Counted from the first letter of the stretch, positions 31,458 to 58,074 are shown. The stretch: DNA of 61,990 nt from an uncultured Actinomycetes bacterium (GCA_964565165.1 CAZMDJ010000003.1:7054-69043); one strand, 5' to 3'. Notes: a model not told the origin generated them from the sequence alone. Program-made: numbers and translations.

Positions 31458-33110
31458 TTACTTAACAACCTTAATTGAGAAATGAATAGCCGGTAGCTGA
31501 TATCCCAATGCAATAGCTGGATTATCATTTGCATAACTTAAAATAGGAAGCATTCCATATTGAGTGTTTGCAAATGAAGGTTGATTTGTATAAAAAAGTG
31601 GATGCAAATCAATTATATGTGTTCCTGGCTTACCGACTGCAGGGAAGTGAATAACCATATAACCATTTGAATTAAAGCCACATCCATAACCAATAAAGCT
31701 ATTGTCGTATGTAACAGCCATAGTGTTATCTAGCTGAGTCCAACCTACGCCTTTTATAGCGATAGTTACTTCTTCGCCGGCTTTAAATGTGTAAGTTGGC
31801 TTGCCTGAACCATCTCGTGATTCAGGAAGTGGAGATTTATCTGCTAGAGCTACACCTGCGGATAAAGCCTTTCCATTCTTATCTTTGTAAACAAAAATAC
31901 TTGGTTTAACGTAGAACGGAATTTGAGCCTGAATCAAGTCTCCGCTTTTAACTTGGATTACATGCCAGCCGCCTAGATTATCTGGGATAGTAACTTCAGT
32001 TGAGAGATTTCCTCCGGTTGGAGTAGCTGTTCCCATTGGCACCCCGTTGTAAACCCAACAGGTACCTGAACAATTGACTCGGTTTCCAACTACAGAAGCC
32101 CAAACTATTTGATGTGCGCCAGTTGTATATAAACCAGTGACATCAAGTTTGACTTTACTTCCTACTACTGCATTGTTTACATCTACTTTGGCAACAGCTG
32201 TAGTTTTTGGATCAACCCCTTGATTAGAAAGCGTAGTTCTAAAATCGGTGGAAGGTGTTACAACTTGAGGGTATTCGATTGAGGAAGGAATCAATCCATT
32301 ATCTTTCGTAACTTTAAATGGCAACATTCCGCCTTTTGAATAGGGCACTGGGGATTGTTTTAAGTTCATATACTGAACACCGATTCCATCGGCTGCAGTT
32401 ACATAATGTGTGCCTATTTCACCTGCTGCTCGAATTTTGAATTCAGCCGTTCCACGTGTCCAAACCGCCTGGGCTTCTCCCACGTAACCGTTATCCCACA
32501 GGATAGAAATACCTCCTGTATAAAGAGTTGAACCGATTCCTGTGTATTTAATAGTTATTGGAGTACCAACAGGACCGCTGGATGGTGACATCGTAAATTT
32601 TGGATTCGTTTGGAATCCGCCTTTAGCAACGGCGGAACCATTGACCACTGCATAAATATCATGTGGTCCACCAAAATCTTCTGGCGCTTTTGTTTTAAAT
32701 ACAAACCCACCGTTTGCATCAGTCATGATTGATGCCATTTTGACTGGGTATTTAAGGTACTTAACCCCACGATAGTTAATTGAATTTGGCTGAACATCTG
32801 TCAACCATGCTCCATCTGCAGTTGACCAAGTTAAATTAACTGAAGAATTTGCTGGCAAGCCTTTTCCCGTCAACGTAAACTCTTGACCAACATAACCTTG
32901 ATTTGGTTCAGTTGTTATCATTCCTTGCAAAAGATCTGGAGTTGTGAAAGTAATTTTTTCTCCAGTGAAAGGCAGGGCAGGAACGCCTTTTAAATCTTTA
33001 GGTGCGGTCAAAGTCAGAATATTTTCTGCATCAGCCGCAATAGCAGGAGTTGCCAGGGCGGCAATTAATACTGCCGCCATGACTCCTCTTTTAATTAAAC
33101 TCTTACCCAT
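31458..33110 (-). CDS. secreted protein of unknown function with four internally repeated beta-sandwich-like modules
   Basis: The 550-aa ORF has the signal peptide MGKSLIKRGVMAAVLIAALATPAIAADA. Four modules share G-x-x-[IV]T[IL]-x-x-x-G...W/Y...G-x-H-x-[IV] (VGQEFTLTGKGL..GGPHDIYAV; VGTPITIKYTGIG..GTHYVTA; VGSKVKLDVTGL..GGWHVIQV; AGEEVTIAIKGVGW..GTHIIDL). Confidence 0.75.
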   Translation of the reverse strand: MGKSLIKRGVMAAVLIAALATPAIAADAENILTLTAPKDLKGVPALPFTGEKITFTTPDLLQGMITTEPNQGYVGQEFTLTGKGLPANSSVNLTWSTADGAWLTDVQPNSINYRGVKYLKYPVKMASIMTDANGGFVFKTKAPEDFGGPHDIYAVVNGSAVAKGGFQTNPKFTMSPSSGPVGTPITIKYTGIGSTLYTGGISILWDNGYVGEAQAVWTRGTAEFKIRAAGEIGTHYVTAADGIGVQYMNLKQSPVPYSKGGMLPFKVTKDNGLIPSSIEYPQVVTPSTDFRTTLSNQGVDPKTTAVAKVDVNNAVVGSKVKLDVTGLYTTGAHQIVWASVVGNRVNCSGTCWVYNGVPMGTATPTGGNLSTEVTIPDNLGGWHVIQVKSGDLIQAQIPFYVKPSIFVYKDKNGKALSAGVALADKSPLPESRDGSGKPTYTFKAGEEVTIAIKGVGWTQLDNTMAVTYDNSFIGYGCGFNSNGYMVIHFPAVGKPGTHIIDLHPLFYTNQPSFANTQYGMLPILSYANDNPAIALGYQLPAIHFSIKVVK

Positions 33111-33141
33111 TTTAATCTCTCCTATATATGTATTCGTTTAA

Positions 33142-34074
33142 TTATTTTGTAGGAACTGCAAAGAGTGTTAACTTTGAAGCATCCATAAAATTTGATGACC
33201 AAGTTCCTGTTGCCCCTTTAAGTGCTGGACTAACAGTCACTGAACGGTAGTAACTAACACGATCGTAAATTGTGCGACCAGTTGCAGGATCTACCTGACG
33301 TACGCCATTGACTACTTTTGGTACAAGCTTTGTTGAAAGAACCTTCATGGTCGTTGTGTCTTTAGCAACCATTGTTACTTTGTAATTAATTATTCCCAAT
33401 GTTGAATACTGTCCATTGCCTGTACCTGTGCGAAGAACGCCGGTCCAGAATGCTGCACCTGAGTGGTTGCCGTAAGTTAAAGGAATCTTTGTTGGCCAAC
33501 CAGATACTTCAATATAAGCTTGTGACGTATTAGTTGAATCCATCACTGCTCCGCCTAAATCGGCATTATTAGCATAAACACGGAAAACAATTCCTTGTCC
33601 CAATAAATATTCTGAAGTGATCGCACAGGACACTCCAAAACGTGGTGCTAACGGACCTGATGTACCAGATGCTAGAACGGTGTCTACATACATATGAATC
33701 GGTGAAATGACACCTTGCACCGGAACGCCTACTTTTACGTTTAGAGTTGGTGAATTCACCTTTGCTATCGAAGTGTCTGTAGGTGTTAACACACCAGTAA
33801 GCGGTGTTGCTCCTGCCGCAGATGGGACCCATGAACATTTTGCAACATACGGTGCAACTGAAGTTGTTGCAATCGCTTCACAACCTGAAATAACTTTACC
33901 GGCCGCTGAAAATGCCACAGTGCCTGGCAATGAGGCTGTTGCAGTAATAACTGCTGGATCTAGACCATAAACAGCGTTACCGCCTGATAGCGCTAATGAG
34001 TCTGCAGCATGCGCTGTCGACATGCCCAGTGTTGCAAATGTTGCTACTACAAAGCTTGCGATGATTTTTTTCAT
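33142..34074 (-). CDS. secreted protein of unknown function
   Basis: The 310-aa ORF has the signal peptide MKKIIASFVVATFATLGMSTAHAAD. I recognised no family motif. Confidence 0.7.
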   Translation of the reverse strand: MKKIIASFVVATFATLGMSTAHAADSLALSGGNAVYGLDPAVITATASLPGTVAFSAAGKVISGCEAIATTSVAPYVAKCSWVPSAAGATPLTGVLTPTDTSIAKVNSPTLNVKVGVPVQGVISPIHMYVDTVLASGTSGPLAPRFGVSCAITSEYLLGQGIVFRVYANNADLGGAVMDSTNTSQAYIEVSGWPTKIPLTYGNHSGAAFWTGVLRTGTGNGQYSTLGIINYKVTMVAKDTTTMKVLSTKLVPKVVNGVRQVDPATGRTIYDRVSYYRSVTVSPALKGATGTWSSNFMDASKLTLFAVPTK

Positions 34075-34108
34075 TACCTAACTCCTTTTATTTCTCTTAA
34101 ATTCTCAA

Positions 34109-34756
34109 TTACTTCGTTGTAATAGTTCCGGTTAAAGTCAATGTGACCGGTGTTGCAGGCTTTGAACCCTTTGATGCACTTGCGATTGCCCATGAACCCG
34201 TAAGAGTCAATGAACCAGTTGCCCCTGCATATTTGCCGGTACCGCTAACGATTGTTATTGGACCTTTTTTGATTGTTACAGTGGTTGGTGCATCTGCATC
34301 AGCAGAGCAAGCCATTGATCCATCTGCATACTTAACTTTCAATGTATCTGCGCCACTTCCGAGAGTGCCTTCGCCATCAAAAGGGGTGCACTGCTCTGCA
34401 GGAACAGCTGATCCCATTCCCGTTAATTTATCTAAACCGCCTGTTTCACCAGTTCCAGTTGCAGTTACATTTGTAACGTTCACATCAGCGTCGCCCCAAA
34501 GCATTGTTACGGTGCCTTTGTAGGTTGCGTTGATTTTTACTGTGCCACCTTTAGAAGTTGCTGGTGTTGATGCAGCAGCTTTTGGCTTTGTTGTTGAAAA
34601 ACCTGTTGGGCACTTTGGCTTTGCTGCGGTAACTTTCTTTACTGTTGTACCTTTGTAGCAAGTAATTGTTTTGTTAGCGGCATTAGCGCCTGCTATATTT
34701 CCTAATACGAGTCCTGCGATTGCGAGGACTGTAGCGATTTTTGTTAAAAGTTTCAT
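34109..34756 (-). CDS. secreted Thr/Gly/Lys-rich protein of unknown function
   Basis: The start is chosen at ATG 34756 (MKLLTKIATVLAIAGLVLGNIAGANA), preceded by AGGGAGAG. The track ORF extends to 34810. The protein has three Cys pairs. Confidence 0.7.
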   Translation of the reverse strand: MKLLTKIATVLAIAGLVLGNIAGANAANKTITCYKGTTVKKVTAAKPKCPTGFSTTKPKAAASTPATSKGGTVKINATYKGTVTMLWGDADVNVTNVTATGTGETGGLDKLTGMGSAVPAEQCTPFDGEGTLGSGADTLKVKYADGSMACSADADAPTTVTIKKGPITIVSGTGKYAGATGSLTLTGSWAIASASKGSKPATPVTLTLTGTITTK

Positions 34757-34882
34757 CAGTTCCATCTCTCCCTGTAACTGGTTGTTACAAGGGAATGTTT
34801 TCACTTGCAAAATAAATGAAAAGAAAAAAGGCGAGTGCCAGCCCCAGCCTGGCTATCTACTCAGTCACAGTGATATATGCAC

Positions 34883-34914
34883 AAAGGGCCACCTCTAATG
34901 AGGTGGCCCTTTTA
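34883..34914 (-). terminator. intrinsic terminator downstream of rpoC
   Basis: aaagggccacctc (34883-34895), taat, and gaggtggcccttt (34900-34912) form a perfect 13-bp stem located 20 nt after the rpoC stop. Confidence 0.65.
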
Positions 34915-34931
34915 TGACTAGTTATTTGTAC

Positions 34932-37900
34932 TTAGTTGCGAACATCCAAGTCATCTAGACGTACCGCTTCACCTGATCCAGATGAATCAAATGGTGTGAA
35001 GTCGTATTCGTCATATGACGCGTAGACCGCTGCCTTTGCCTCTTCTGTTGGCTCAACACGTACATTGCGATAACGAGCAAGTCCGGTACCAGCTGGAATC
35101 AACTTACCGATGATGACGTTCTCCTTCAGACCAAGAAGTGGATCGCTCTTCTCTGATAACGCTGCATCAGTTAGAACACGAGTTGTTTCCTGGAATGAAG
35201 CTGCTGACAACCAAGATTCAGTTGCAAGCGATGCCTTAGTGATACCCATAAGTTCTGGACGACCAGATGCAGCCTTACCACCGGTTGTAACAACGCGACG
35301 GTTCTCTGCTTCGAAGCGACCACGCTCTACAAGTTCGCCAGGAAGAAGATCTGTATCTCCAGCCTCAAGAACTGTAATGCGCTTTAGCATCTGACGAACG
35401 ATAACTTCGATGTGCTTATCGTGGATACCTACACCCTGTGAACGGTAAACCTCTTGGATTTCGTTAACCAAGTGAACCTGAGTTGCACGTGGTCCAAGAA
35501 TACGAAGAACCTGCTTAGGATCAATCGCGCCAACAACCATCTTCTGGCCGACTTCAACCTTCTGTCCTTCTTCTACAAGAAGCTTCTGGCGACGAGTAAT
35601 TGGGTAAGCAACTTCTTCTCCGCCATCTGCAGGTGTAACAACAATCTTCTTGCCCTTTGCATCCTCGCGGAATGAAACAACACCTGCTGCTTCGGCGATT
35701 GGCGCAACACCCTTAGGTGTACGAGCTTCGAATAGTTCTTGTACACGTGGAAGACCGTGAGTGATGTCATCACCTGCAACACCACCGGTGTGGAAGGTAC
35801 GCATTGTTAGCTGTGTACCTGGTTCACCGATTGATTGCGCTGCAATGATTCCGACTGCTTCACCAATATCTACACGCTTACCTGCACCAAGTGAGCGTCC
35901 GTAGCAAGCTGCGCACTGTCCGACCTTGCTATCGCAAGTTAGAACTGAGCGAACCTTAACTTCAGAAACTCCTGCTGCAATTAAGTCATCGATAACGCGA
36001 TCGCCAAGATCTTCTGCAGCTGATGCAATTACCTTGCCATCAATTACTACATCTTCAGCCAACGCACGACCGTAGATAGATGTCTCAACATGATCATCCT
36101 TAACCAATACACCGTTCTGCTTTGATGCAATTGGAAGCACTAGACCACGATCGGTTCCGCAATCTTCTTCGCGGATGATCACATCTTGTGCAACGTCGCA
36201 GAGACGACGTGTTAGGTAACCTGAGTCAGCGGTACGTAGCGCGGTATCTGCAAGACCCTTACGCGCACCGTGTGTTGAGATGAAGTACTCAAGTACAGAT
36301 AGACCTTCGCGGAAGTTTGACTTGATTGGACGAGGAATAATTTCGCCCTTTGGATTTGCCACAAGACCACGCATACCTGCGATCTGACGAATCTGCATCA
36401 AGTTACCACGAGCACCAGAGTGAACCATCATCCATACTGGGTTGATGCGAGGGAAGTTATCTTCCATCTCTTTACCAACTTCAGCAGTTGCTTGGGTCCA
36501 GATTTCAATCAATTCCTGACGACGTTCATCATCAGTGATCAAGCCCTTCTCGTACTGTGATTGGACCTTATCTGCCTTAGTTTCATAGCTCTCAAGAATT
36601 TCTTGCTTGCGAGGTGGAACTACAACATCTTCAATACCGATTGTTGCGCCAGCACGAGTTGCCCAACGGAAACCAAGTTCCTTAAGTGCATCAAGTGTTG
36701 CAGCTACAACTACCTTTGGATAGAACTCAGCAAGACGATCAACAATAGAAACAAGTTGCTTCTTTGTTACATCTGCATCAACGAATGGGAAATCAGTTGG
36801 AAGTGCATCATTAAAGATTGCGCGACCAATTGTGGTCTCCTTGATTTCACCAGCAACACGAATCTTGACTGGAGCTTGAACTGCAACGCTTCCTTGATCA
36901 AGAGCCATAATTGCTTCGGCTACGGATGTAAATGCGCGACCTTCACCCTTTTCGCCAGGACGTACCTGAGTTAAGTAGTAAAGACCAAGCACCATGTCCT
37001 GTGTTGGAATTGCAAGAGGACGACCATGTGCTGGCGACAAGATGTTGTTAGATGACAACATCAAGATACGTGCTTCAGCTTGCGCTTCTGCAGATAGAGG
37101 TAAGTGAACCGCCATCTGGTCACCGTCGAAGTCAGCGTTGAAAGCTGTACAAACAAGCGGATGTAGATGGATCGCTTTACCTTCAACCAACTGTGGTTCG
37201 AAAGCTTGGATACCTAAGCGGTGCAGGGTTGGTGCACGGTTAAGTAGAACTGGGTGTTCTGCAATAACTTCTTCAAGAACATCCCAAACAACTGGACGTG
37301 CACGTTCGACCATGCGCTTTGCGCTCTTGATGTTCTGTGCATGATTTAGATCAACAAGGCGCTTCATTACGAATGGCTTGAAGAGTTCTAGCGCCATCTG
37401 CTTTGGCAGACCGCACTGGTGCAACTTCAACTGCGGACCAGCAACAATTACGGAACGGCCAGAGTAATCAACACGCTTACCGAGCAAGTTCTGACGGAAT
37501 CGTCCCTGCTTACCCTTAAGCATGTCTGAAAGTGATTTAAGTGCACGGTTACCAGGACCGGTAACTGGGCGACCACGACGACCGTTATCGAATAGCGAGT
37601 CAACAGCTTCCTGCAACATACGCTTTTCGTTATTAACGATGATCTCTGGAGCACCAAGATCTGCAAGACGCTTCAAACGATTGTTACGGTTGATAACGCG
37701 GCGATATAGATCGTTTAGATCTGATGTCGCAAAGCGTCCACCATCAAGTTGAACCATCGGACGTAGATCAGGTGGAATAACTGGAACGCAATCAAGAACC
37801 ATTGATGCAGGTGCATTGCTTGTATTCAAGAATGAGTTAACAACCTTCAAACGCTTAATTGCGCGAGTCTTCTTTGCGCCCTTACCGTTTTCAGCGATAT

Positions 37901-38735
37901 CAGTTAACTTGTCGTATTCAGTCTTAAGATCGAAATCTTCAAGACGCTTCTTGATTGCAGCAGCGCCCATGTCTCCCTTGAAGTACATGCCATAACGGTC
38001 ACGCATTTCGCGGTATAGAGATTCGTCGCCTTCAAGATCCTGAACCTTTAGGTTCTTAAAGCGTGACCACACATCTTCAAGACGTGAGATTTCCTTGTCA
38101 GCCTTTTCACGGATCTGCTTTAGCTCGCGCTCTGCAGATTCGCGGACCTTACGCTTAACATCGCTCTTTGCATCTTCTGCTTCGAGTTCAGCCATATCAG
38201 CTTCAAGTTTCTTAGAACGAGCATCGATATCTAGATCGCGCTTGGTTTCGATCTTCTTACGATCGTTAGCAAGCTTCTTCTCGTTCTGCGCCATATCTTC
38301 TTCGCGAGCTTCTGTATCAACAGAAGTGATCATGTAGGCAGCGAAGTAGATAACTTTCTCTAGATCCTTTGGAGCTAAATCAAGTAGGTAACCGAGACGT
38401 GAAGGAACGCCCTTGAAGTACCAGATATGTGTAACTGGAGCTGCAAGTTCGATATGTCCCATACGTTCGCGACGTACCTTTGCGCGAGTAACTTCAACAC
38501 CGCAACGTTCGCAGATAATGCCCTTAAAGCGAACGCGCTTGTACTTACCGCAATAGCATTCCCAGTCACGAGTAGGTCCGAAGATCTTCTCGTCGAATAG
38601 GCCATCCTTTTCCGGCTTTAGTGTGCGGTAGTTGATGGTTTCTGGCTTCTTAACTTCGCCGAAAGACCATGCGCGGATGTGTTCTGCTGATGCAAGACCA
38701 ATACGTAGTTCATCAAAGAAATTAACATCTAACAT
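34932..38735 (-). CDS. rpoC: DNA-directed RNA polymerase beta' subunit
   Basis: The 1267-aa ORF carries the [12 protein letters not shown] active-site motif and an N-terminal zinc-binding [23 protein letters not shown]. Confidence 0.99.
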
Positions 38736-38739
38736 CTGA

Positions 38740-41700
38740 TCACACCTCTTCTACTGAGCTTGGCTCAACTCGTGACAAGTTAATTCCAAGTTCTTCTGCT
38801 GCTCGGAATACTTCATCATCTGTGTCGCGCATTTCGATTGCAACACCTTCTGAAGAAAGTACTTCAACATTTAGACATAGTGATTGCATTTCCTTAACAA
38901 GAACCTTGAATGATTCAGGGATACCTGGCTCTGGAATGTTTTCACCCTTAACGATCGCTTCGTAAACCTTTACGCGACCAAGCACGTCGTCAGACTTAAT
39001 AGTCAACAACTCCTGCAATGTGTATGCAGCGCCATAAGCTTCAAGCGCCCACACTTCCATTTCACCGAAGCGCTGACCACCGAACTGTGCCTTACCGCCA
39101 AGTGGCTGTTGAGTAATCATTGAGTAAGGACCCGTTGAACGTGCGTGAATCTTGTCGTCGACCAAGTGGTGCAGCTTCAAGATGTACATGTAACCAACTG
39201 AGATTGGTGTTGGGAATGGTTCGCCTGAACGGCCATCAAATAGATTTGCTTTACCTGATGAACCGATTAGTTGTAGACCATCACGGTTAGGAAGAGTTGC
39301 ACCTAATAGGCCAGCAACTTCTTCTTCCTTAGCGCCGTCGAATACTGGAGTTGCAACGTTTGTTCCTGGTTCTGCTTTTGCAGCACCAATCTCTTCAAGA
39401 TGCTTTGTCCAAGCTTCGCCAACACCTGAAAGATCCCAACCAGTCTTTGCAGCCCAACCCAAGTGCATTTCAAGAACCTGTCCGACGTTCATACGTCCAG
39501 GTACACCAAGTGGATTAAGGATTACATCGATTGGAGTTCCATCTTCAAGGAATGGCATATCTTCAACTGGAAGAATCTTTGAGATAACACCCTTATTACC
39601 GTGGCGACCAGCAAGCTTGTCACCAACTTGAATCTTGCGCTTCTGTGCAACGTAAACGCGAACAAGTGTGTTTACACCTGCGCCTAGTTCGTCGCCTTCT
39701 TCAGATTCAAAGACTTTAACGCCGATGATCTTGCCTGATTCACCATGAGGAACCTTTAGTGAGGTATCGCGAACTTCGCGAGCCTTCTCACCGAAGATTG
39801 CACGGAGCAAGCGCTCTTCTGGAGTTAATTCGGTTTCGCCCTTTGGAGTTACCTTTCCAACCAAGATATCGCCAGGAACAACTTCTGCACCTACGCGGAT
39901 GATGCCTCGTTCATCAAGGTCAGCAAGTACTTCTTCAGAAACGTTTGGAATATCGCGAGTGATCTCTTCTGCACCAAGCTTGGTGTCGCGAGCATCAACT
40001 TCGTATTCTTCAATGTGAATAGATGTCAGTTCGTCATCTTGTACTAGACGCTGAGAAAGAATGATCGCGTCTTCGTAGTTATGACCTTCCCATGACATGA
40101 AGGCGATTAGAAGGTTCTTACCAAGAGCCATTTCGCCCTTGTCAGTTGAAGGACCGTCAGCGATAACTGTGCCAACTTCAACCTTCTGACCATCTGCAAC
40201 CTGCACGCGCTGGTTGTATGAAGTTCCCTGGTTTGAGCGACGGAACTTAGATAGTGAGTAGTTGTCGTACTTACCATCGTTTGTCATAACTGTTACTTCA
40301 TCAGATGAAACTTCAGTTACTACACCCGCGCTCTTTGCCATGATTACATCGCCAGCATCGATTGCGTTACGCCATTCCATACCAGTTCCAACTAGTGGAG
40401 ATTCTGGACGCATTAGCGGAACAGCTTGACGCATCATGTTAGAACCCATCAACGCACGGTTAGCGTCTTCGTGCTCTAGGAATGGAATCATTGCTGTTGC
40501 AACAGAAACCATCTGACGTGGTGAAACGTCCATGTAATCAACTTCGTCTGCCGGAATGTATTCAACTTCTCCGCCACGACGACGAACAAGAACACGTGCT
40601 TCAGCAAATGTGTTATCCGCGTTTAGCGGTGCATTTGCATGAGCGATTACGTGCTCGTCTTCTTCGTCTGAAGTTAGGTAATCAAACTAATCTGAAACTT
40701 TTCCGTTAACAACTTTGCGATATGGAGTTTCGATAAATCCAAATGCAGTTACACGTGCGTATGTTGCAAGACCACCGATAAGACCAATGTTTGGACCTTC
40801 AGGAGTTTCGATTGGACACATACGTCCGTAGTGAGATGGGTGAACGTCACGAACTTCGAAGCCCGCACGGTCACGTGATAGTCCGCCAGGTCCAAGCGCT
40901 GAAAGACGACGCTTATGTGTAAGACCTGACAATGGGTTTGTTTGATCCATGAACTGTGACAACTGAGATGTTCCGAAGAATTCCTTGATTGATGCAACAA
41001 CCGGACGGATGTTGATCAATGTCTGAGGAGTAATCGCTTCGACATCTTGTGTTGTCATACGTTCGCGAACAACGCGTTCCATACGTGATAGACCGGTACG
41101 AACCTGATTCTGGATTAGTTCGCCAACTGTACGTAGACGACGGTTACCGAAGTGATCGATATCGTCAGCTTCTACGCGAACTTCCTTGCCGTAATCCATA
41201 ACTAGATCGCCACGGTGTAGCGCAACTAGGTACTTCAGTGTTGCAACGATGTCCTGAATAGTAAGCAAATTAGCTGCTAATTCTTGCTCAAGACCTAGCT
41301 TCTTATTGATCTTAAAGCGACCGACCTTGGCCAAGTCGTAACGCTTTGGATTGAAGTAATAGTTCTCAATTAAGTTCTGCGCAGCTTCCTTTGTTGGAGG
41401 CTCGCCAGGACGAAGCTTGCGGTAAATATCTAACAGCGCATCGTCTTGTGTCTTTACGTTATCTTTTTCAAGAGTCTGGCGGATTGAATCGTATTCACCG
41501 AAGTTTTCGATGATCTGTTCTTCTGTCCAACCTAGAGCCTTAAGGAAAATTGTTACAGATTGCTTACGCTTACGATCGATACGTACGCCAACCTGATCTT
41601 TCTTATCTACTTCGAATTCAAGCCATGCACCACGTGAAGGAATGATCTTCGCTGTGAATACATCTTTATCTGAACCCTTTTCAATTGAGCGTTCGAAATA

Positions 41701-42240
41701 AACACCTGGTGAACGAACAAGCTGTGAAACAACAACACGTTCGGTGCCGTTGATTACGAAAGTTCCGCGAGGTGTCATCAATGGGAAGTCGCCCATGAAA
41801 ACAGTCTGCGATTTAATTTCGCCTGTTTCGTTATTCATAAATTCCGCAGTTACGAAAAGTGGAGCTGCGTAAGTCATATCGCGCTCTTTGCACTCGTCTA
41901 CTGCGTACTTTGCAGGCTCGAAGCGATGATCACGGAATGAAAGTGACATCGATCCTTGGAAATCTTCGATTGGAGAGATCTCCTCGAAAATTTCTTCTAG
42001 ACCTGATTGTGATGGTAGTTCTCCACGAAGAGATTCCGGTGAGCTCGCCATACGCTCGCGCCACTCAGCATTACCAAGTAACCAATCAAAGCTCTCACGT
42101 TGTAGAGCAAGAAGGTTTGGTACTTCTAGTGGTTCAGAGATTTTGGCGAAAGAAATACGGCGTGGAGCAGTTTTATTCTTTGACGCGGCCAAGTTATGTC
42201 CTTCCAAGACAATTTTTAAAACATTACGTTTCACATGCAC
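38740..42240 (-). CDS. rpoB: DNA-directed RNA polymerase beta subunit, interrupted by one in-frame TAG at 40689..40687
   Basis: The two track ORFs (40687..42240 and 38740..40533) are in the same frame. The 51 codons between them are open and encode conserved beta-subunit sequence. Rif-cluster [32 protein letters not shown] is present. The N-terminal start is uncertain (GTG 42240, GTG 42234 or TTG 42207). Confidence 0.93.
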
Positions 42241-42292: not shown

Positions 42293-42369
42293 TGAGGGAG
42301 CAGGATATCGGTGCTTGCTTTCCCATGTCTAATCGGGTAAAAGCTCTAAGCCCCGCTCCTGCTCCCTCA
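42293..42369 (-). promoter_or_regulatory. long-loop inverted repeat upstream of rpoB (terminator/attenuator-like on the minus strand)
   Basis: tgagggagcagga (42293-42305) and tcctgctccctca (42357-42369) form a perfect 13-bp inverted repeat with a 51-nt spacer. On the minus strand the stem is followed by CAC then T6 (plus-strand A6 at 42284-42289). Confidence 0.4.
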
Positions 42370-42516
42370 ATCCGGCGAGCCCACCAGGCCGGACCTTTAA
42401 GCAGAGTCTGGGGCAGATCTGTGAGAAATTCGTGTGAAGAGGGGTTCAGCTCTATAAGAAATGCTCGCGCTCACCATTTGGTAGCGGTAGCCCTATCTAC
42501 CTGCGAAACTTAAACC

Positions 42517-43191
42517 GTGAGTAAAGGGCAGATTCTCGTAGTTGATGATGAACTCGCGATCAGAGAGCTGATCACCGAAGTTCTCAATATCGCTGACTTC
42601 CAGGTCACAACTGCAGCCGATGGCCTTGAAGCGCTAAATCAGGTCCGCAAAACTAAATTCGATCTGATCCTGCTTGATGTGAATCTTCCAAAAGTTGATG
42701 GATTTGCAGTCCTTGAGAAGGTCCGCGAAAGCGCTCCGACCCAGCCAATCATCATGCTCAGCGCTCGTACCAGTAAAGATGACGTAACGCATGGCCTTCG
42801 TTTAGGTGCAGATGATTACATCCGCAAACCATTTAGCGTTGAAGAGCTGGTGCTTCGCGTTGAAAATCGATTGAAACGAAATGGCTCTGATGTGGACACC
42901 GTTTTAAGTTGCGGCCCACTCTCTTTATTTGAAGGCGAACATAAAGTTACTTTCAACGAGAAGACTATTGACCTATCTCCTACCGAATTTAATCTTTTGC
43001 AGGTTCTGCTTCAGAATCAGAATCGCGTATTAACAAAAGAGAAGTTGCTCGATCTCGTTTGGGGTCTTGATTTCGAAACCACCACCAACGTGGTCGATAC
43101 ATACATCTCTTACCTTCGTAAAAAATTACATATAAATGGATTCGAAGGAATTAAAACTGTGCGAGGCGTCGGCTTTAAGTTGGAGTGTTAA
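42517..43191 (+). CDS. OmpR/PhoB-family response regulator
   Basis: The 224-aa ORF has a receiver domain (ILVVDDE...DLILLDVNLPKVDG) and a winged-helix C-terminus (LSPTEFNLLQVL...VDTYISYLRKKL...IKTVRGVGFKL). GTG start. Confidence 0.92.
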   Translation: MSKGQILVVDDELAIRELITEVLNIADFQVTTAADGLEALNQVRKTKFDLILLDVNLPKVDGFAVLEKVRESAPTQPIIMLSARTSKDDVTHGLRLGADDYIRKPFSVEELVLRVENRLKRNGSDVDTVLSCGPLSLFEGEHKVTFNEKTIDLSPTEFNLLQVLLQNQNRVLTKEKLLDLVWGLDFETTTNVVDTYISYLRKKLHINGFEGIKTVRGVGFKLEC

Positions 43192-44339
43192 TGAAGTTAA
43201 GCACGCGCCTAGCTTTAGTTGTCTCTGCGATTCTGGCAATCACTACCATTATTTCTAGCGCTCAATCTGTAATTGTCCACAGGAACGAGAAGCTCAATAC
43301 ATATAGCGATGTACTCAATAACTTAGCTAATCAGCTCGCCTCATCTGATGAGAATGATTTAACTTTTGCGCTGTTCATTGCCGAGCAGAGCCCAATCCCA
43401 ATGTCACTTGCTTACATCTCCCCAGAAGGCCACGCTACTTATTTAACCGAAGCGGCTGGATCTGGGTTAGTTATTCCAACTAAAGAGCAGTACCAGAAAG
43501 GTTTACAAGAACCGCTTCTCTTTAGAGACATCATGGAACGTTTCTACAAAATCGGTAAGAACGAATACATTGGTTTCTACGTATCAATCACTGATTTAAA
43601 TGATGAAATTAACCGTAGCTTTAAGAAAATCCTCTTCTTTAACTTAATTATCATTCTGATCGCTGGTCTCTTAATTACTTTTATTTTCCGCCGCGACAGT
43701 AAGTTAAATAGCGCCGCTAAAGGTATGCAGGAATTTATCGGCGATGCTTCCCACGAACTCAAGACTCCGCTTACTGTTATTCGCGGTTATTCAGAGATCT
43801 TGAGTAACAATCCCGATCAAGGCGAAAAATACGCACGACGAATTCATGATGAATCCCTTCGCATGTCCAGCATCATCGATCAGTTACTAAAGATCGCAGC
43901 ACTTGATGAGGGGCATAAAGAGGAACCTGTATCGATTGATATCGCCGAATACTTAAAGTCTCACATTGAAGATATTTTGATGTTACAACCAAATCGAATG
44001 GTTTCCTTTGTTCCTGAACCATTGATGGTGAAAGCTCCATACGATTTAGTAGACACACTTCTTTCAAATGTACTTACCAATGCACGTATCCATTCACCAG
44101 AAGATGCGCCACTTCTTATCTCTATTACCGGTAAGCAAGTAACAATTGAAGATGGCGGTCCGGGGATGAAAGAGATTCCAGATAAACCATTTATGCGCTT
44201 TGATTCATCGCGTTCACGCAAGACTGGCGGCAGCGGTTTAGGTATGAGTTTGATTCAAAAGTGCGCCAAAGAACTTGGCGCAAAGTTGAACTTCGGTAAG
44301 AGCGATTTAGGCGGTTTGAAAGTAGAGATTACTTTCTAG
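43191..44339 (+). CDS. sensor histidine kinase
   Basis: The protein has two TM segments flanking a ~130-aa extracytoplasmic loop. The H-box is FIGDASHELKTPLTVIRGY, with N and G boxes (NARIHSP; DGGPGM; GGSGLGMSL). ATG 43191 overlaps the RR stop as TAATG; the alternative GTG at 43185 is used by the track. Confidence 0.9.
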   Translation: MKLSTRLALVVSAILAITTIISSAQSVIVHRNEKLNTYSDVLNNLANQLASSDENDLTFALFIAEQSPIPMSLAYISPEGHATYLTEAAGSGLVIPTKEQYQKGLQEPLLFRDIMERFYKIGKNEYIGFYVSITDLNDEINRSFKKILFFNLIIILIAGLLITFIFRRDSKLNSAAKGMQEFIGDASHELKTPLTVIRGYSEILSNNPDQGEKYARRIHDESLRMSSIIDQLLKIAALDEGHKEEPVSIDIAEYLKSHIEDILMLQPNRMVSFVPEPLMVKAPYDLVDTLLSNVLTNARIHSPEDAPLLISITGKQVTIEDGGPGMKEIPDKPFMRFDSSRSRKTGGSGLGMSLIQKCAKELGAKLNFGKSDLGGLKVEITF

Positions 44340-45985
44340 TTTCCAAACCAACCTTGAATTGCACCAACTACATCTGAACCTTTAACAATTAGCACCAAGA
44401 CAAAGTAAACGCAGATTCCAAGTAATCTATATGAATATCTGGTTAGTGCAGTTCGTTGCCAGCTAGATGCATCTCGCTCTGAATTAGCCATTGCATACAT
44501 TGCGCCGATAATCACTGTTGGGATTGTCAGAACCACAAATGCTGATCGCAAATATGTGTATGGATCTTCGATCTGTGATGCCAATACATTTGCGAAGTAG
44601 GTGCCAATTAAAATCATGATTACAGTCTTAACTGCACCGGTTGGCAAGAACTTACCTTTGAATGCAGCTTCTGGAATGTAATGGGTGTATCGCTCGATAA
44701 TTGATGGAAGTACGAATAGAGCTGTACCGATCCAAAGTTCGAGTGAGTTACCGATAAATAGCTCTGCAGTTAGATTAAAGAGAACCGCTCTAAAGACAAT
44801 GACAACTGAGGTGTGACGTGAATGCACATCCTGAGGTTCTGATTCCTCATGTAGAGCGTTTGTACGTACGGGATATCCATAAGTTACAAACTCTTCTAGC
44901 AACATGCGACCAACTAAAACGATAGCCGCAAAGATTGCAATCTTATTTGCCTCAGGCATGATGGTTACTTTGTAGCCAGATAGGCCGCCAAGTGCGTAAA
45001 CCATCTTCTGCACTCCCCAACCCATTAATAAAGCTGCAAGTGCATAGTCAGTTGCACGTTCCCAGAACGAGGCGAAATCTTTAACTTCGCGACGTAATGG
45101 ACGGAATGCACTTGCTAGAAGTCCTGGAACAAACCAGAGCATTACGTAACCGACTGTGGTTAGTAGTGAATGACGAGAATCGATATTTCCCGAAAGGAAA
45201 ACACCGCCAAAATATAGGAATGCAGCGAAGAAACCTGCATAGGCATCAAGTAGACCAATAAGAATTCCGGCCATTGTTAAACCAAGCGTTGCAGGTAGCG
45301 CTTTGAAGTGCGCTGCATGTAGTGCCTGAGAAGCGACAATGAAAGCGGCTGGATAAAGCAGGTAGCTAACTGAACCAATCATTGATCGCAGATATGTGCC
45401 GTCAATAATTAAACGGTGCATCAATGGGCTAAAACGTGAGAACTGAAATGCTGCTAATCCGAATTCGCGATCCGCTAACCCAGTTAATGGAAAGCGCCAT
45501 GTTCTTAGTCGATCTCCCCAACCAGGTTTACGTTTAATTTTCTCTAGTTCGCCTGTCTCAATCGCTTCGAGTGAGCTCTGCTCGACATCGCCTTCTGAAC
45601 TTCCAGAGGTATCTGATTCATTCTTTGAACCACCAACAGCGCCAAGAATAGAAAGCGCTGCGACTGCTAAGCCAGTTGTTCCCACTGGATCATCAGCAGG
45701 ATTAAATGGTGCCAATTCGCCAGGGCATAGGTCGTCCCACTTGATAATTCCTTTTGAAGTTTTGCAGAACTTTAATGTTTGTGTACTTACTACGCCGCTG
45801 TCATCACTAACTTCAATATCTACCTCATGATGTCCAGGCGGTACATCTGCAGGAATTTGAATATCAAGCGCTTCAGCTTCTGATGTTGTTATGCGATCAA
45901 TTAAAACTGTGTCTTTAGCCCAGGAAGGCATCGTAAGAAGCTGTAACCCCACGATTGCTGCAAGCACTAGTAACTTCTTCTTCAT
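44336..45985 (-). CDS. polytopic membrane protein of unknown function (signal peptide, small extracytoplasmic Cys-pair domain, Ser/Glu-rich linker, ~10 TM)
   Basis: The 549-aa ORF begins [25 protein letters not shown]. Its ATG overlaps the giant gene stop (TAATG). Its TAG stop overlaps the convergent kinase TAG within the palindrome CTAG (44336-44339). Confidence 0.75.
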   Translation of the reverse strand: MKKKLLVLAAIVGLQLLTMPSWAKDTVLIDRITTSEAEALDIQIPADVPPGHHEVDIEVSDDSGVVSTQTLKFCKTSKGIIKWDDLCPGELAPFNPADDPVGTTGLAVAALSILGAVGGSKNESDTSGSSEGDVEQSSLEAIETGELEKIKRKPGWGDRLRTWRFPLTGLADREFGLAAFQFSRFSPLMHRLIIDGTYLRSMIGSVSYLLYPAAFIVASQALHAAHFKALPATLGLTMAGILIGLLDAYAGFFAAFLYFGGVFLSGNIDSRHSLLTTVGYVMLWFVPGLLASAFRPLRREVKDFASFWERATDYALAALLMGWGVQKMVYALGGLSGYKVTIMPEANKIAIFAAIVLVGRMLLEEFVTYGYPVRTNALHEESEPQDVHSRHTSVVIVFRAVLFNLTAELFIGNSLELWIGTALFVLPSIIERYTHYIPEAAFKGKFLPTGAVKTVIMILIGTYFANVLASQIEDPYTYLRSAFVVLTIPTVIIGAMYAMANSERDASSWQRTALTRYSYRLLGICVYFVLVLIVKGSDVVGAIQGWFGN

Positions 45986-48900
45986 TACTTACCTTCCTTA
46001 ATTGTTACTTTAACTTTCTGTCCTGGTTTCAAATTTGTCACATTGAATTTTGCATTCGAACCAGAAGTCTTTGGCGTGATATTTACTTTCTTCGCTGCAG
46101 GTTGCCTAGCAGTACTTGCCTTGGGTGCAGCTTGTGCCTTTTCAACAATAGTTACCTTCACCTTTTGGCCAGGCTGCAAATTAGTTACGTTTACGTTTGC
46201 ACTGGTATCTGTGGTCTTAGGTTCAATCTTCACAGGTGCGCTACTTGGCTTAGTTGTTGGAGCCGATGCACTTGCAGATGGTTTAGTAGATGCTGACGCA
46301 CTTGCTGAAGGCTTCGCTGATGCAGATGCAGAGGTAGATGGTTTAGCTGTCGCACTTGCTGAAGGCTTCGCTGATGCAGAAGCGCTTGCAGATGGTTTAG
46401 CAGAAGCTGATGCGCTCGGTGAAGATGATGGCTTCGGTGAAGAAGTTGGTGATGGAGAAGATGAAGGCTTCGGAGTTGCACTCGGAGATGCACTCGGTGA
46501 AGGAGTTGGCTTCAATGTTGGCGATGCAGAAGGCGATGCACTTGGTGTCGCACTTGGTGTTGCACTCGGGGTTGCAGAAGGTGTTGGCATTACCGATGGA
46601 GTCGGTGAAGGTGACGGCGAAGCAGACGGTCTTGGCGTTGGTGTTGGTGTTGTGGGAGTTGATGGAGTTGTTGGAGCAGATGCGCCACCGCCACCGCCAC
46701 CTCCGCCACCGCCAGAGTTATTAGAAGGAGCAGCTGCAAATGTAATTGTTACTGCTGATGAAGTTACAGATCCGTAGGTGCTATCTCCTGCTTTTGTTGC
46801 AGTTGCAATACAAGTACCCGCTCCATTTGCAGTAACCGATCCGGTACTTGATACAGCGCAACCTGCCGCCGTTCCGCCAGTAATTGCGTATGTAATTGAA
46901 CCAGTTCCGCTACCACCAGAAGTTATTAGCGCAACCGGTGTACCTACAGTTGCGTTCGAACCAGTAACGCTTAACGCCGCTTGAGATTGTGCTGCTACGC
47001 CAATAGTCACAACTTTAGATACGTTCTTTACGATGCCACCAATAGTTACCGCTGCATTAATTGTGAATGAAGCAGCAGCCGAAATTGCGGTTGGAGTTCC
47101 AGAGATGGTTCCCATCGCTGGATCGAAAGTTAATCCTGCCGGAAGTGTTCCGGTCAATGAATAAACAATTGAGGACCCAGCTTCTGCCTGAATTGACGTT
47201 GAGATTGGCGTAATTGCATTTCCAACGGATCCGGTAAGAGTCGTAACTGATGTAGAAATTGCAGGATCGGTAATAAAGGTAGTTGATGTAGTTGCGCTAC
47301 CAGTTCCAGCTGAGTTAGTTGCAGTCACAACTGCGTTGTACTGAGTACCGGGCGCTAATCCTGTTAAATTCGCAGAAGTTGTTGTTGAAGTAGTTGTAAC
47401 AGTTGAGCCGGTGTTTACCGGTACCGCACTGATTGAATATTGAGTGATTGATGCTCCACCGGTATTTGTTGGCGCAGTGAAAGTTACATCAGCTGTTGAA
47501 GTGCTGCCGGTTGGCACTGATGCATTTACGCCGCTTGGTGATGATGGTGCACTTGCATTAACACCGATAGTTATTGTTGCCGTACCCGTATCAACTGTTC
47601 CACTTGGCAGAGTGGTTGAAACAGTAATCACAAATTGTGTTGGCGAAATAGCAACAGTTGGAGTTCCAGAAATTTCACCAGTATTTGGGTCCAAAGTTAA
47701 GCCCGCAGGGAGTGGCCCTGCAATTGAATAGGTTGTTCCTGTAGCGCCAAGTGCAACAATTGAAACTGTAATTGGAGTAATCGCTTGATCAATAGTTGTA
47801 GTCAAGCTATTTGTTGATGGAGTGACACCTACTGGAGTAACAATTCGAGTTGAAGCAGTTGTATCCGGGCCGGTTCCTGCTGAGTTGGTAGCTGCAACAG
47901 ATACAACATATTCAGTACCCGGTACAAGATTTGTGACAGTTACTGCTGAACCAATTACTGACGCCGATGGTGTCGCATTAATAATCGTGCCTGATGAGAC
48001 AGGTGTAATTGCAATTGCATATGTAGTGATTGTTGCGCCACCATCGTATGTAGATGCACCAATGTTTACAGCTGCCGTTGTCGCAGTTGGTGTAGTTGCA
48101 GATACTGATGCTGGTGCGCCAGGAACTACAGGATTAACGCCCAATGTAAATGTCGTTGTACCGGTAACAGTCGCACCACCAGTAACCGTTGCTGTCGCAG
48201 TAACAGTAAATGTTGTTGCGTTGATTGCGACTGTTGGTGTTCCAGAAATTTCTCCAGTTGTTGTATCAAGTGTTAATCCTGCAGGTAGCGCGCCGCTTAC
48301 AGAATATGAAACTCCTGTTGGATTAGAACCAGTAATGGCAGCAGAGATAGGCGTGATTGCCTGGCCAACAGAAGCTGTTTCACTTGATGAACTTAATGAA
48401 ACACCAAGCGGAGTTGTGAAGGTAGAACTTTGAGAAGTCGTGCCACTGCCTGAACTATTAGCTGCAGTTGATGTAACTGTGTAAGTAGTACCTGGTGCAA
48501 GTGAAGTTGTCGGTACAGATGTTGAAGTTGTGTTTTCGACAACCGGCGTACCACCGCCAACTGGCGTGAAAGTTGTTTGATAGCCAGTAATTGTTGCGCC
48601 GCCATTTGATGTTGGTGCGGTCAAAACAACTGTTGCTGCAGTTGATGAAGTTGCAGTTGCAGATTGAATTCCTGGAGCAGATGGTGGCGCTGCTGGGGTT
48701 GTAATTGAAGTTGCAGCTGATGTTGCACTTCCCTGACCAACTGCGTTAATCGCTACTGTAGATATTGAATAGGTAGTGCCTGCTGCTAGGCCACTTAATG
48801 TGACAGCGTTTGAAATATCTGCAGCGTTTACAGTTAAGTTAATAGGGGTTCCGCCACCTGTAGGTGTTGCAGTTATCTTGTAAGAAGTGATCGCAGATCC

Positions 48901-51900
48901 ACCGTCAACTGTCGCTGCACCAACCGTTACCGAAGCGGTTGAATAAGTTGGCGCAGTTGCCGAAACAGTTGCTGGAGCACCAGGTACAGTTGCAGGCGCA
49001 ACAGGTAATGAAAGCGCTGAAGCAGTTGAAGAACCCACACTGTTATTAGCAACCACTGAATATTGATAATTAGTTCCGTTTGTTAAGCCAGAGATTCGAC
49101 ATCCGACCGCTGGATCTGTTGCTGTACATGTACCGGCAGATGAACCATCTGGATTCTTCGCTGTAACTGTATAGCTGGTGATTGCAGCGCCGCCAGTTGA
49201 TGAAGGTGCGGTAAATGTAACTGTGGCAGCGGTGTTTTCAACTGTTGCTGTTGGAGAAGTTGGTACGCCAGGTGAAGTTGCTGGTGTTGAAGTTGCTGAG
49301 GTTGATGGCGCTGAAGAACCGGATGAATTCGTTGCAACAGTTGTAAATGAATATGCGGTTCCGTTAGTTAGACCTGCAATTGTGCAACTTGTTGCTGGTG
49401 AAATAACGGTGCAAGATCCGGCGGTTGATCCATCAGGATTTTTTGCAGTAACGGTGTAAGAAGTTGGTATTCCACCACTGCCACTTCCTTGGGCTACATC
49501 GATAGTTACTGAGCCATTGCCTGAAGTTAATGTCTGTGTCGGCGCATCAGGCGCAGCTGGCACCCAAACTGCAGTTAGCGTTGTGTTAGTTGTAGGAGTA
49601 ATTGTCGATTGAGGTGCAACAGTTGTAGATCCTGTTGACCAAGCTGTCAATGCAAATCGAGTTCTGGTGATACCGGTTGTCGGTGCAGTCTGAACGGTTG
49701 TACTTGGTGCAACCAATTGAGTAGATGGCGCAGTACCTGTTGTTGCACCAGCAATTGAATAAGAGACACCAATTAGCGCAGCAGACCATTGCGCAGTAAG
49801 TGTTACTGCATATGCAGGCATGGTGTACGTGCTGCCTGCAGCCATCACGTTTGTGCCGTCGCTCCAACCTAAGAAATTCTTTGTGGCATCTGTATTAGTT
49901 GGAGTTGCTGCCAATGTAAATGTTGAGCCGTACGCAGTATTTCCTTGAGTAGGTACTGAGCCAGTACCACCGGTACCCAAGTCATAAGTAACCGCATATG
50001 AAGCTGCTACCCATTTTGCAGTAAAGGTTACGTCGCGATCAGGCATTGTATAAACAGCACCGGATGCAAAAGGAGCTGCCACATCTAACCAACCATCAAA
50101 GTTGTAACCAGTTCTAGTTGGTATAACCGAAGTTACGGTTACTGAGTCGTTGTAAGAATGCGATGTAGCGCTCAAAGTTGTTGAACTAGTTCCTTGGTTT
50201 AGGTCATAAGCAACGGTGTGGGAATTTGATGTCCACTGAGCAGTAAGAGTTACACCGTTTGGATTTGCAAGTGTGTAATTGGCGCCAGCGCCATAAGTGT
50301 TTGTTCCATCGCTCCAGCCTGCAAAGGCGTAGCCAACTTTGCTAATCGCTGCCGCCAAAGTAATCGTTGTTGTAAATGCACCTGTCTGCGTACTGGTAAC
50401 CAATGTCCCGCCATTGCCTGCATATGTTGCAGTAATTGTCGCTGGTGTCCATTGTGCAGCTAAGACGTAATGGTTATCGCGAACTTGATACGCAGATGCT
50501 GCGGCAACAGTTTCGCCACTTTGATCTTTCCAATTAACAAAGTTATAGCCAGCACGAGTTGGTGTTGCATTTGTAGTGATGTTCTGAAGATCATTACACA
50601 TGTTCCCTGCATTAGCGCATTCACTATCAATATCTGATTCGGCAGGAGTTATAACTGCATGAGTGCCGCCATTTAATACGTATTTAACTACGAAACGTTT
50701 GATCCATTGCGCTGTAAATGTAGTTCCACCATCTTGCACAATATAAGTAGAACCTTCAGCATAAATAGTTCCAGACGTACTCTTCCAGCCAACAAAGGCA
50801 TATACCTGGGTATTTACGGTGACTGTTGCGGAATCAATATTTTGAAGAGTGTAATTCGAACCAAAAGCACGAGTAACCGTTGTAGTTGCAAGAGTTAGCC
50901 CTGATGAAGTGCTTCCATCTACCGTACCTGCGTTGAAGTTAAGGGTTTGATTTGCCGGTGTCCAAATTGCATAAAGAGTTGTATTAGCTGTCGGTGTATA
51001 CGAACCACTAATTACTGAACCTGTTGGAGATGTCGACCACCCAGAAAGCGAGTACCCAGTCTTTGTCATTCCAGATGCATCCGGAAGCGATAAGCCAGTA
51101 CCAGAAGTTGTATATGTTGCTGCGCCATTTGTTGCAGATCCTGTTGCACCATTTGTGTTCCAAGTGATGTTGTAAGTACCTGGAGACCATTGCGCATAAA
51201 GAGTTACAGATTGTGTAGGCGTATACAGACCGCTAATTACAGTTGAAGTTTCAGACCAACCGCTAAATACATAGCCAGCTTTCTCCATTGTTCCAACAGT
51301 TGGCAAGCTTATTGCTGAACTTCCATAAGCAAATGAATCCGATGTGCGCGATGCGGATCCTGTTGCACCGGTATTTGGGTTATAAGTAATTGTGTAAACC
51401 AATGGCGACCATTGCGCTGCAAAAGTTACGTTTGCTGTAGACATGGTGAAAGTCTGTCCAACACTGTAAATCGTTGAACCTGATGCCCAACCAGTAAATG
51501 TATAACCGGTACGAGTTAGTCCTGTTCCGGCTGCAACTGTAAAAGTCTGACCACTTGAATGCGTTGGCTCTGTTGGAACATTTCCTGTTCCGCCATTTGC
51601 ATCATATGTAACCACGTACTGAAGAGCTGTCCAGACTGCAGTCAAAGTTACATTGCTAGCCCCAACAGTGTAAGTAGAACCATATACATATGAAACATTT
51701 GCTTGATCGGTCCAGCCAGTAAATGTGTAACCGGTATTAGATAAACCAGTTCCTGCTGCTACTGAGAAGGTTTGTCCGATGGTCTTGTTGGCCTCTGTTG
51801 GGAGCGTTCCGGTGCCAGAACCGCTATTTACATAAGTAATTGTGTAGCTAACTGCGCTCCACTTTGCGAACAAAGTAAGCGCTGCAGAGGTGCTGTAGGA

Positions 51901-57900: not shown

Positions 57901-58074
57901 TGCGCTAGGACCGTTGTAATTGCCTCCACCAAATACATACCAGCTCGAATCGTATGCAGTGCCTAAACGAGCAGCTTTCGCACTTGGAGCGCTTATTGAA
58001 ATAAACAAGAATGGGGCTATTAAAGTTGCTACTACTAGCCTCGTTACGGTGCGGAAACGCGAGCTGGCAAGCAC
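45985..58074 (-). CDS. giant (4029 aa) secreted mosaic repeat protein, candidate cell-surface or adhesin-like protein
   Basis: A single uninterrupted 12,090-nt ORF. The GTG start is preceded by GGGGGTG. A signal peptide is followed by arrays of Listeria-Bacteroides-type (InlB B-repeat/Flg_new-like) repeats, two Gly-rich domains, a LamG-like module, FN3-like and Ig-like modules, and a Pro/Ser/Ala/Thr linker. No LPXTG or C-terminal TM was seen. Confidence 0.9.
46225..46735 (-). repeat. poly-Gly (G10) followed by a Pro/Thr/Ser/Ala/Lys low-complexity tandem-repeat linker
   Basis: [42 protein letters not shown]...[48 protein letters not shown]. At nucleotide level a 30-nt exact repeat cgcacttgctgaaggcttcgctgatgcaga occurs twice about 54 nt apart (~46298 and ~46352). 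Confidence 0.85.
46990..49560 (-). repeat. FN3-like modules (about 6 here, plus one at ~52303-52519) alternating with three Ig-like 'GxISGTPT' modules
   Basis: FN3-like example: [36 protein letters not shown]. Another: [14 protein letters not shown]...[23 protein letters not shown]. Ig-like (He_PIG-like by memory) example: [42 protein letters not shown]. Confidence 0.65.
49564..52302 (-). repeat. Flg_new-type repeat array 4 (about 12 copies, more degenerate)
   Basis: Units end LYAQW, LFAKW, LTAVW, FAAQW, LYAQW, LYAIW, FTAQW, LAAQW, LTAQW, FTAKW, LTAQW, LTAVW. Core motif G[YF]xFxGW is retained. Confidence 0.75.
52520..53240 (-). other. glycine-rich domain copy 2 (approx)
   Basis: [80 protein letters not shown]...[12 protein letters not shown] is collinear with copy 1. 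Confidence 0.55.
53320..54799 (-). repeat. Flg_new-type repeat array 3 (about 7 copies)
   Basis: Successive units end VYAQW, LYAQW, LYAVW, IYAKW, LYAQW, LYAIW, IYAKW. Confidence 0.8.
54815..55425 (-). other. LamG/concanavalin-like lectin-type module (approx)
   Basis: The segment lacks the repeat motif: [17 protein letters not shown]...[11 protein letters not shown]...[12 protein letters not shown]...[20 protein letters not shown]...[33 protein letters not shown]. The ending is typical of Laminin_G_3-like domains as I recall them. Confidence 0.5.
55431..55844 (-). repeat. Flg_new-type repeat array 2 (about 2 copies, the second truncated)
   Basis: [13 protein letters not shown]...[17 protein letters not shown]...LYAKW, then [17 protein letters not shown]...[18 protein letters not shown]. 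Confidence 0.75.
55845..56565 (-). other. glycine-rich domain copy 1 (approx)
   Basis: [79 protein letters not shown]...[13 protein letters not shown]. It resembles my recollection of the Pfam Gly_rich family (ALK/LTK-type polyglycine). Confidence 0.55.
56566..57492 (-). repeat. Flg_new/InlB-B-type repeat array 1 (4 copies, approx coordinates)
   Basis: The ~70-75-aa units begin like [TV]xYxxNGGTG and end GY[TH]F[TS]GWNTxA[ND]G[ST]GTxY...[LF]YA[QKI]W. Confidence 0.8.
57973..58074 (-). other. signal peptide of the giant protein
   Basis: [34 protein letters not shown] | ARLG has a basic n-region, a hydrophobic core and an AKA-A cleavage motif. Confidence 0.7.

Follow-up and report, generated by a model that had tools for sequence, protein, structure and literature searches.

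Core genes with an internal stop codon are met as apparent 'pseudogenes' of essential functions in metagenome-assembled genomes (MAGs) and single-amplified genomes (SAGs), and, under control, in the rpoB(Am) strains of Escherichia coli that are provided with suppressor tRNAs. Stops may also be crossed by translational bypassing, of which T4 gene 60 is a known example; short hops over stops between matched codons have reportedly been seen in E. coli (by Weiss and co-workers, in 1987), and the known unassisted hops are about 1% efficient. The large RNA polymerase (RNAP) subunits, in turn, may exist in pieces, as do the archaeal B''/B' chains and the cyanobacterial and chloroplast beta' subunit. 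Artificial splitting of the beta subunit of E. coli yields fragments able to assemble into an active enzyme (Severinov et al. 1996, cited in PMC7483510). Here, we analyse rpoB, the gene for the beta subunit of RNAP, in a stretch of 61,990 nt from an uncultured Actinomycetes bacterium (GCA_964565165.1, CAZMDJ010000003.1:7054-69043; hereafter 'the window'), in which the reading frame is interrupted by an amber codon (TAG). We reason that this TAG belongs to a local, unselected and strand-biased lesion of this record (from template damage, faulty reads or a dead-end molecule) and does not represent recoding, and we assign to this reading a probability of roughly 0.7.

The locus resembles each of the described systems in part. 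With the internal-stop 'pseudogenes' of MAGs and SAGs it shares a stop that is present in a single record and absent from relatives, an otherwise intact frame of a single-copy essential gene with intact neighbours, and a position in a conserved region at which metagenome contigs repeatedly end; other public MAGs, too, have rpoB copies that are comparably or worse corrupted. The locus departs from them in that substitutions only (no indels) were found, tightly clustered and strand-biased, in a sequence that is otherwise base-perfect against independent contigs. As in the E. coli rpoB(Am) strains, an in-frame UAG occupies a site of rpoB at which many residues are tolerated, but the host is a wild uncultured lineage, the window has neither a suppressor tRNA nor a TAG used as sense elsewhere, and additional damaging replacements follow downstream. 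The likeness to bypassing lies in the matched GAU codons that flank the UAG, here over a gap of 9 nt, with no dedicated stem-loop identified and in an arrangement that no relative has. In common with split RNAP large subunits, the beta chain is interrupted roughly mid-gene; the cut, however, passes through the external-1 domain and not between modules, no separate start signal accompanies it and 51 conserved codons would be lost. Among the PDB matches listed there is no split B'/B'' chain to compare the position with.

All coordinates refer to the window, and rpoB lies on its minus strand; codon numbers in rpoB are counted from SKNK, and residues 502 and 554 as well as the domain positions from the TTG start at 42192. 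An earlier note on this DNA had reported an in-frame TAG at 40689..40687, followed by 153 nt (40686..40534) that stay in frame and free of stops, with 51 codons between the TAG and the next Met. Direct translation bears out all three points (the peptide quoted in the note was reproduced exactly, and the first ATG, GTG or TTG in frame is the ATG at 40533). The gene forms one frame (42192 to 38740), which, apart from the TAG as its one internal stop, stays open all the way between the stop that precedes its start and the TGA at 38740. On the gene-coding strand of the 62-kb window, no other stop breaks up a gene. Its parts are as follows.

40690..42192, minus strand: N-terminal rpoB frame, 501 codons from the TTG, with Pfam Rpb2 domains 1, 2 and 3
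40687..40689, minus strand: in-frame TAG, codon 499 from SKNK and residue 502 from the TTG; AAG (Lys) changed by A>T
40534..40686, minus strand: the 51 codons from the TAG to the ATG at 40533, most of the external-1 domain
38740..40533, minus strand: C-terminal rpoB frame, 597 codons from the ATG at 40533, with Pfam Rpb2 domains 6 and 7

The true start is likely the TTG at 42192 (product MAASKNK...), which has a Shine-Dalgarno-like GGAAGGA motif 6 nt upstream, and 648 codons of the frame lie downstream of the TAG. Once the TAG is read as Lys, Pfam finds Rpb2_1, _2, _3, _45 (external 1), _6 and _7 in one polypeptide, and PF10385 (Rpb2_45, the external-1 domain of 66 residues) maps to residues 491-557; the TAG corresponds to profile position ~12 of 66, and the next Met, residue 554, to the end of the domain. 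If the TAG is respected, Rpb2_45 is missing from both fragments. The gene keeps its canonical rplJ-rplL-rpoB-rpoC neighbourhood, with rpoC (34932..38735) directly downstream.

The G+C content is 44-48%, and the best protein matches of the rpoB product are RpoB of acI, 'Candidatus Planktophila' and Nanopelagicaceae; the host is a freshwater actinobacterium of the acI / Nanopelagicaceae. The site was compared in 135 related rpoB sequences, comprising 120 GTDB species-representative genomes (retrieved by a degenerate DNA pattern around the site), two JGI contigs and 13 metagenome contigs (retrieved by a clade-specific pattern). A sense codon is found at the TAG position in 135/135 of them and TAG in none, and the closest database proteins are likewise without a stop. 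The residue itself is variable (Q in 81, K in 17, R in 9, A in 8, H in 8, plus S, T, N, E and D). Most acI genomes have CAG or CAA, and the 17 nearest relatives AAG or AAA (Lys); the nearest of all (L129, JACCDX011650731.1; 96.05% nucleotide identity over the whole rpoB) carries AAG. Since the 17 closest relatives, L129 included, have AAG or AAA, AAG is the ancestral codon and AAG>TAG the event, in place of the GAG to TAG change that had been proposed. M. tuberculosis RpoB does have the Glu that was ascribed to it, but it is not the relevant ancestor; the alignment to the closest rpoB genes, suggested in the note as a check, thus supplied a sense codon in every relative, with Lys and not Glu in the nearest.

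The stop is accompanied by further private changes. The note had taken the lesion to be a single codon and the 648 codons downstream to be perfectly conserved, and neither view could be upheld, as V500F, A505S, Q515H and D572E are also private to the window, lie nearby and replace invariant residues. Differences between the window and L129 were polarised with four outgroups over 3444 nt of rpoB, giving 56 window-derived and 56 L129-derived substitutions. Eight of the former fall inside 54 nt (codons 498-515; permutation P = 4.5e-4), and 17 codons hold four of the eight non-synonymous window changes (P = 5.8e-4). On the L129 branch the biggest comparable cluster has five changes, and the private replacements are all at variable positions. 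The variants at codons 509, 510, 512 and 514 (three or four synonymous sites) are natural polymorphism, because contig L135 has them too; the changes listed here are private.

40639..40692, minus strand: 54-nt patch, codons 498-515, with six changes private to the window
Codon 498: GAC>GAT, synonymous, private
Codon 499: AAG>TAG, stop, private
Codon 500: GTT>TTT, V>F, private
Codon 505: GCA>TCA, A>S, private
Codon 513: ATT>ATC, synonymous, private
Codon 515: CAG>CAT, Q>H, private
40468..40470, minus strand: codon 572, GAC>GAA, D>E, private, in a universally conserved motif of 13 residues

F500, S505, H515 and E572 occur in 0 of 131-135 relatives, at sites that are otherwise invariant. The last of them lies 171 nt downstream of the patch, within a universal motif of 10 residues, and D is present at codon 572 in 133/133 aligned relatives (one relative is gapped there); conservation of the four replaced residues extends from E. 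coli to actinobacteria, and A505, Q515 and the 10-residue motif are conserved in the Mycobacterium and Streptomyces RpoB of the PDB as well. A DNA scan of 241 million metagenome contigs gave 0 matches to the A505S variant, and a short-query protein search for the private E572/D664 alleles returned distant short proteins only.

Within the 223-nt stretch 40468..40690 the ratio of non-synonymous to synonymous changes (N:S) is 5:2, against 3:46 in the rest of rpoB (Fisher P = 2.8e-4), and the rough dN/dS is ~0.8 versus ~0.02 elsewhere in the gene. By these ratios, rpoB was very strongly constrained along essentially all of the branch, and 40468..40690 has the look of an unselected stretch. On the coding strand, five of the six patch changes are X>T (bias to T against the rest of the branch, P = 0.011), and D572E is C>A, equal to G>T on the opposite strand. 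If the polymerase puts A opposite oxidised or abasic bases, or if a read is poor, a one-strand 'anything to T' pattern would be expected.

About seven substitutions in 223 nt (40468..40690), private, unfiltered by selection and directed from A, C or G to T on the coding strand, would most likely descend from one damaged or badly read DNA template. As to physical origin, we infer three candidate sources: oxidised or abasic bases may have been copied with A; a low-quality read or a PCR-duplicate family may have bridged the assembly graph at a point where it is tangled and highly conserved; or the stretch may derive from a dead-end mutant molecule or cell. Sequence alone does not separate a technical error from a truly damaged or mutant molecule. 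In any of these cases the living population would be expected to carry AAG (Lys) together with Val, Ala, Gln and Asp at the four other sites, and its beta subunit to be an ordinary one of full length, with no recoding, suppression or subunit splitting. From the options listed in the earlier note, an error and a very recent or dead-end nonsense allele still fare best, and genuine read-through is disfavoured by the clustered replacements.

Two further sources of the patch were considered and rejected. Import of the whole patch by recombination fits only the synonymous sites shared with L135, as the stop and the replacements match no lineage, and a chimeric per-position consensus of co-occurring strains is ruled out because TTT, TCA, CAT and GAA at these codons are present in no relative.

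The surroundings of the patch are clean. Strains 99-100% identical to the window occur in runs SRR14271353, -54, -59, -60 and -61 (for which the literature search gave no match), and two Logan contigs (SRR14271359, SRR14271353) are 100% identical to it over 7.7 kb. Against strains 99.0-99.8% identical from five other runs the window has no private difference over 32191..37566, and rpoC has one private residue at a conserved site; elsewhere in this comparison most differences are alleles common to other contigs, and such sharing points to recombination. General low assembly quality was rejected, given that rpoC and ~15 kb are clean when set against near-identical strains in independent assemblies; overall low quality consequently does not explain the patch, and a single aberrant template does. 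The same follows from the character of the errors, which are substitutions only, clustered and strand-biased in an otherwise accurate assembly, and so indicate one bad template.

The neighbourhood of the TAG is also one in which assemblies break. Four contigs (L138-L141), from four JGI metagenomes, begin 1-16 nt upstream of the Met551 ATG (equivalent to ~40534..40550) and all encode the same 597-aa RpoB C-terminal product; rpoB near Met551 is a recurrent assembly break point, just downstream of the TAG. Corrupted rpoB is common in deposited MAGs: four GTDB MAGs (L025, L008, L087 and L004) have 9-107 singleton residues at otherwise invariant positions, and the rpoB of L008 contains a frameshifted stretch (TARSSRARSS) adjoining the TAG site.

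Some considerations count against a lesion of the record. In the raw reads, support for the TAG could be good, and the window is in perfect agreement with independent assemblies elsewhere, so that the assembly is accurate in general and a random cluster of errors a priori rare. De Bruijn assemblers normally need each k-mer more than once, which means that the stretch must be present in several reads (or PCR duplicates). The main uncertainty is that no independent contig of the same strain was retrieved over 40468..40690, with or without the TAG, and the privacy of the changes therefore holds against a 96% relative and not against the strain's own population. Searches with the neighbouring 549-aa and 310-aa proteins retrieved contigs that are 94-100% identical (one 91%), five of them at least 99%, and all end before the TAG site. 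Exact look-up of the 597-aa C-terminal and the 501-, 506- and 517-aa N-terminal fragments found none on record, and neither were the products of rpoC and of the response regulator gene. Twelve edited RpoB proteins, which differed in start and truncation and had either K, V, A, Q and D restored or the stop alone changed to Lys, gave 0 exact matches in a collection of 15 billion proteins, identity over 597-1155 residues being a very demanding requirement.

The contrary view is that the TAG and the replacements are real and fixed in an acI population represented in at least five sequencing runs, where beta of full or nearly full length would be made either by efficient UAG suppression or by a short ribosomal hop from GAU 498 to GAU 501; taken together we consider this unlikely. 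Under suppression, a living cell would keep the allele and decode UAG into full-length beta by means of a suppressor tRNA (anticodon CUA, from the genome or a phage) or by near-cognate read-through. The frame is indeed intact on both sides of the TAG, strong purifying selection acts on the rest of rpoB, the assembly is accurate elsewhere, and almost any inserted residue would do at a site where relatives have K, Q, R, A, H, S, T, N, E or D. We nevertheless doubt it strongly. Codons 500-572 would then be translated and yet hold four replacements at invariant residues; as read-through would keep these codons under selection, the private damaging cluster weighs against a programmed mechanism. Besides, no tRNA gene or Rfam family was detected in the 62-kb window, no relative has TAG at this codon, and the hairpin 3' of the TAG (-40 kcal/mol, z = -1.8) is not specific to the window, the same or a stronger fold being present 3' of the site in relatives with a sense codon. 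TAG moreover terminates ordinary genes, with no second in-frame TAG in the window, and the same facts dispose of a genome-wide reassignment of TAG to an amino acid (e.g., pyrrolysine), for which the in-frame TAG itself is the sole argument. The 64 ends of open reading frames (ORFs) in the window comprise 8 TAG, 48 TAA and 8 TGA; TAG ends adk (directly before map), the histidine kinase gene, the gene of the 549-aa membrane protein and other ORFs, the Pfam matches of adk and the kinase extend to the C-terminal ends of both proteins, and no other conserved gene in the 62 kb is interrupted. The earlier note had cited the same three genes against reassignment, and with good reason, since for this window reassignment is effectively refuted. 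A frameshift around the stop was rejected on inspection of the sequence (both alternative frames meet a TGA within three codons). As for the hop, the peptidyl-tRNA-Asp would leave GAU 498 with UAG in the A site and land on GAU 501, 9 nt downstream, giving a beta subunit that lacks K-V-D. The arrangement GAT-TAG-TTT-GAT does place matched take-off and landing codons on either side of the stop, the match to codon 501 is created by the private synonymous GAC>GAT at codon 498, and V500F would never be translated. However, S505, H515 and E572 still would be, an efficiency of ~1% is too low for an essential and abundant protein, and the loss of three residues from the conserved external-1 domain is likely harmful; the arrangement is seen in no relative, nor did structural comparison with the relatives reveal a take-off stem-loop specific to the window sequence. 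With nothing else in support of a hop, which we deem very improbable, the match at codon 498 is an intriguing coincidence.

A truly split beta subunit, with an N-terminal piece of 501 aa and a C-terminal piece of 597 aa (from the ATG at 40533) assembling into RNAP, could draw on the reported function of E. coli beta as assembled fragments (PMC7483510) and on the fact that F500, S505 and H515 fall in the stretch that would go untranslated. Against it, the TAG lies inside PF10385 (491-557) and the next start at residue 554, which would cost the protein this domain; with 153 nt between stop and ATG, the distance is too great for coupled re-initiation, and neither is there a Shine-Dalgarno-like motif within 30 nt of it nor does a private change create one. 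Furthermore, the private changes do not spread over the 153 nt but crowd into the first 48, D572E is inside the would-be C-terminal piece, and no relative is split. The earlier note had already thought a split unlikely, a judgement that is strengthened here by the loss of the external-1 domain from any split protein, and we see hardly any room for it. The stop and the several damaging replacements also have the look of a pseudogene, and some actinobacteria carry rpoB paralogues, which could suggest that an intact second rpoB resides elsewhere and that the copy in the window is a young, decaying extra. The copy nevertheless occupies the canonical rplJ-rplL ... rpoB-rpoC position, acI genomes are streamlined (1.3-1.5 Mb), and the damage is limited to 223 nt. 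The elevation of dN/dS over the whole gene that a pseudogene should display is not seen (outside the stretch, 3 N stand against 46 S), and the value of ~0.02 there implies that rpoB was functional until very recently; a decaying copy is accordingly a very poor candidate.

The rplJL-rpoBC cluster is itself divided in the window by a ~16-kb block (42345..58264) that separates rplL from rpoB and that L129, the nearest relative, lacks; the block has the look of a strain-specific island. The genes of the block and those upstream of it are given below.

42517..43191: response regulator, in the 16-kb block
43185..44339: histidine kinase, in the 16-kb block
44336..45985: 549-aa membrane protein, no Pfam match
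45985..58074: giant protein of 4029 aa, with 19 Listeria-Bacteroides repeats, 7 FN3 domains and glycine-rich domains
58349..58735: rplL, upstream of rpoB
58766..59419: rplJ-sized ORF, upstream of rpoB, assigned by size and outside the Pfam scan

Three relatives (L133, L086 and L131) have the two-component genes at ~72% nucleotide identity, and the giant gene is absent from them. The convergent histidine kinase and 549-aa genes overlap by 4 nt (44336..44339), and owing to the palindromic CTAG that they share there, both end in TAG. Both of the Logan contigs that are 100% identical to the window stop exactly at 44234, within the gene for the histidine kinase. Such an end suggests that the assembly graph branches there or that the junction varies between strains. 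Another ORF that ends in TAG (59826..60188, 120 aa, no Pfam match) has the rplJ region on one side and a gene for a Na+/H+ exchanger on the other.

In rpoC, lineage-specific conservative replacements (I/V/L/T/S) cluster at 36830..36911 (codons 609-636) and 35987..36116 (codons 874-917); these are natural variation, as they are identical in near-identical strains. Compared with strains that are otherwise 99-100% identical, the window has a highly divergent allele of part of an MMPL-family gene at 29663..30277 and a second, short divergent tract at 32118..32190, and both are taken for recombination mosaics because many of their variants are common to more distant contigs.

If the TAG is a lesion of this record, as we favour, its meaning is that of a quality flag only, and the rpoB of this acI bacterium should be treated as intact (Lys for the TAG, and Val, Ala, Gln and Asp for the four replacements) in phylogeny, in marker-based estimates of completeness and in annotation. 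The case also offers a diagnostic, in that a 'nonsense mutation' in a core gene calls for a search for private, strand-biased and unselected neighbours before recoding is invoked. Should the reads of several samples support the allele, we would have before us one of the rare cases in nature where suppression or bypass of a stop codon keeps an essential gene alive, and a genome-streamlined, free-living bacterium would then depend on recoding for a single-copy gene of its essential core.

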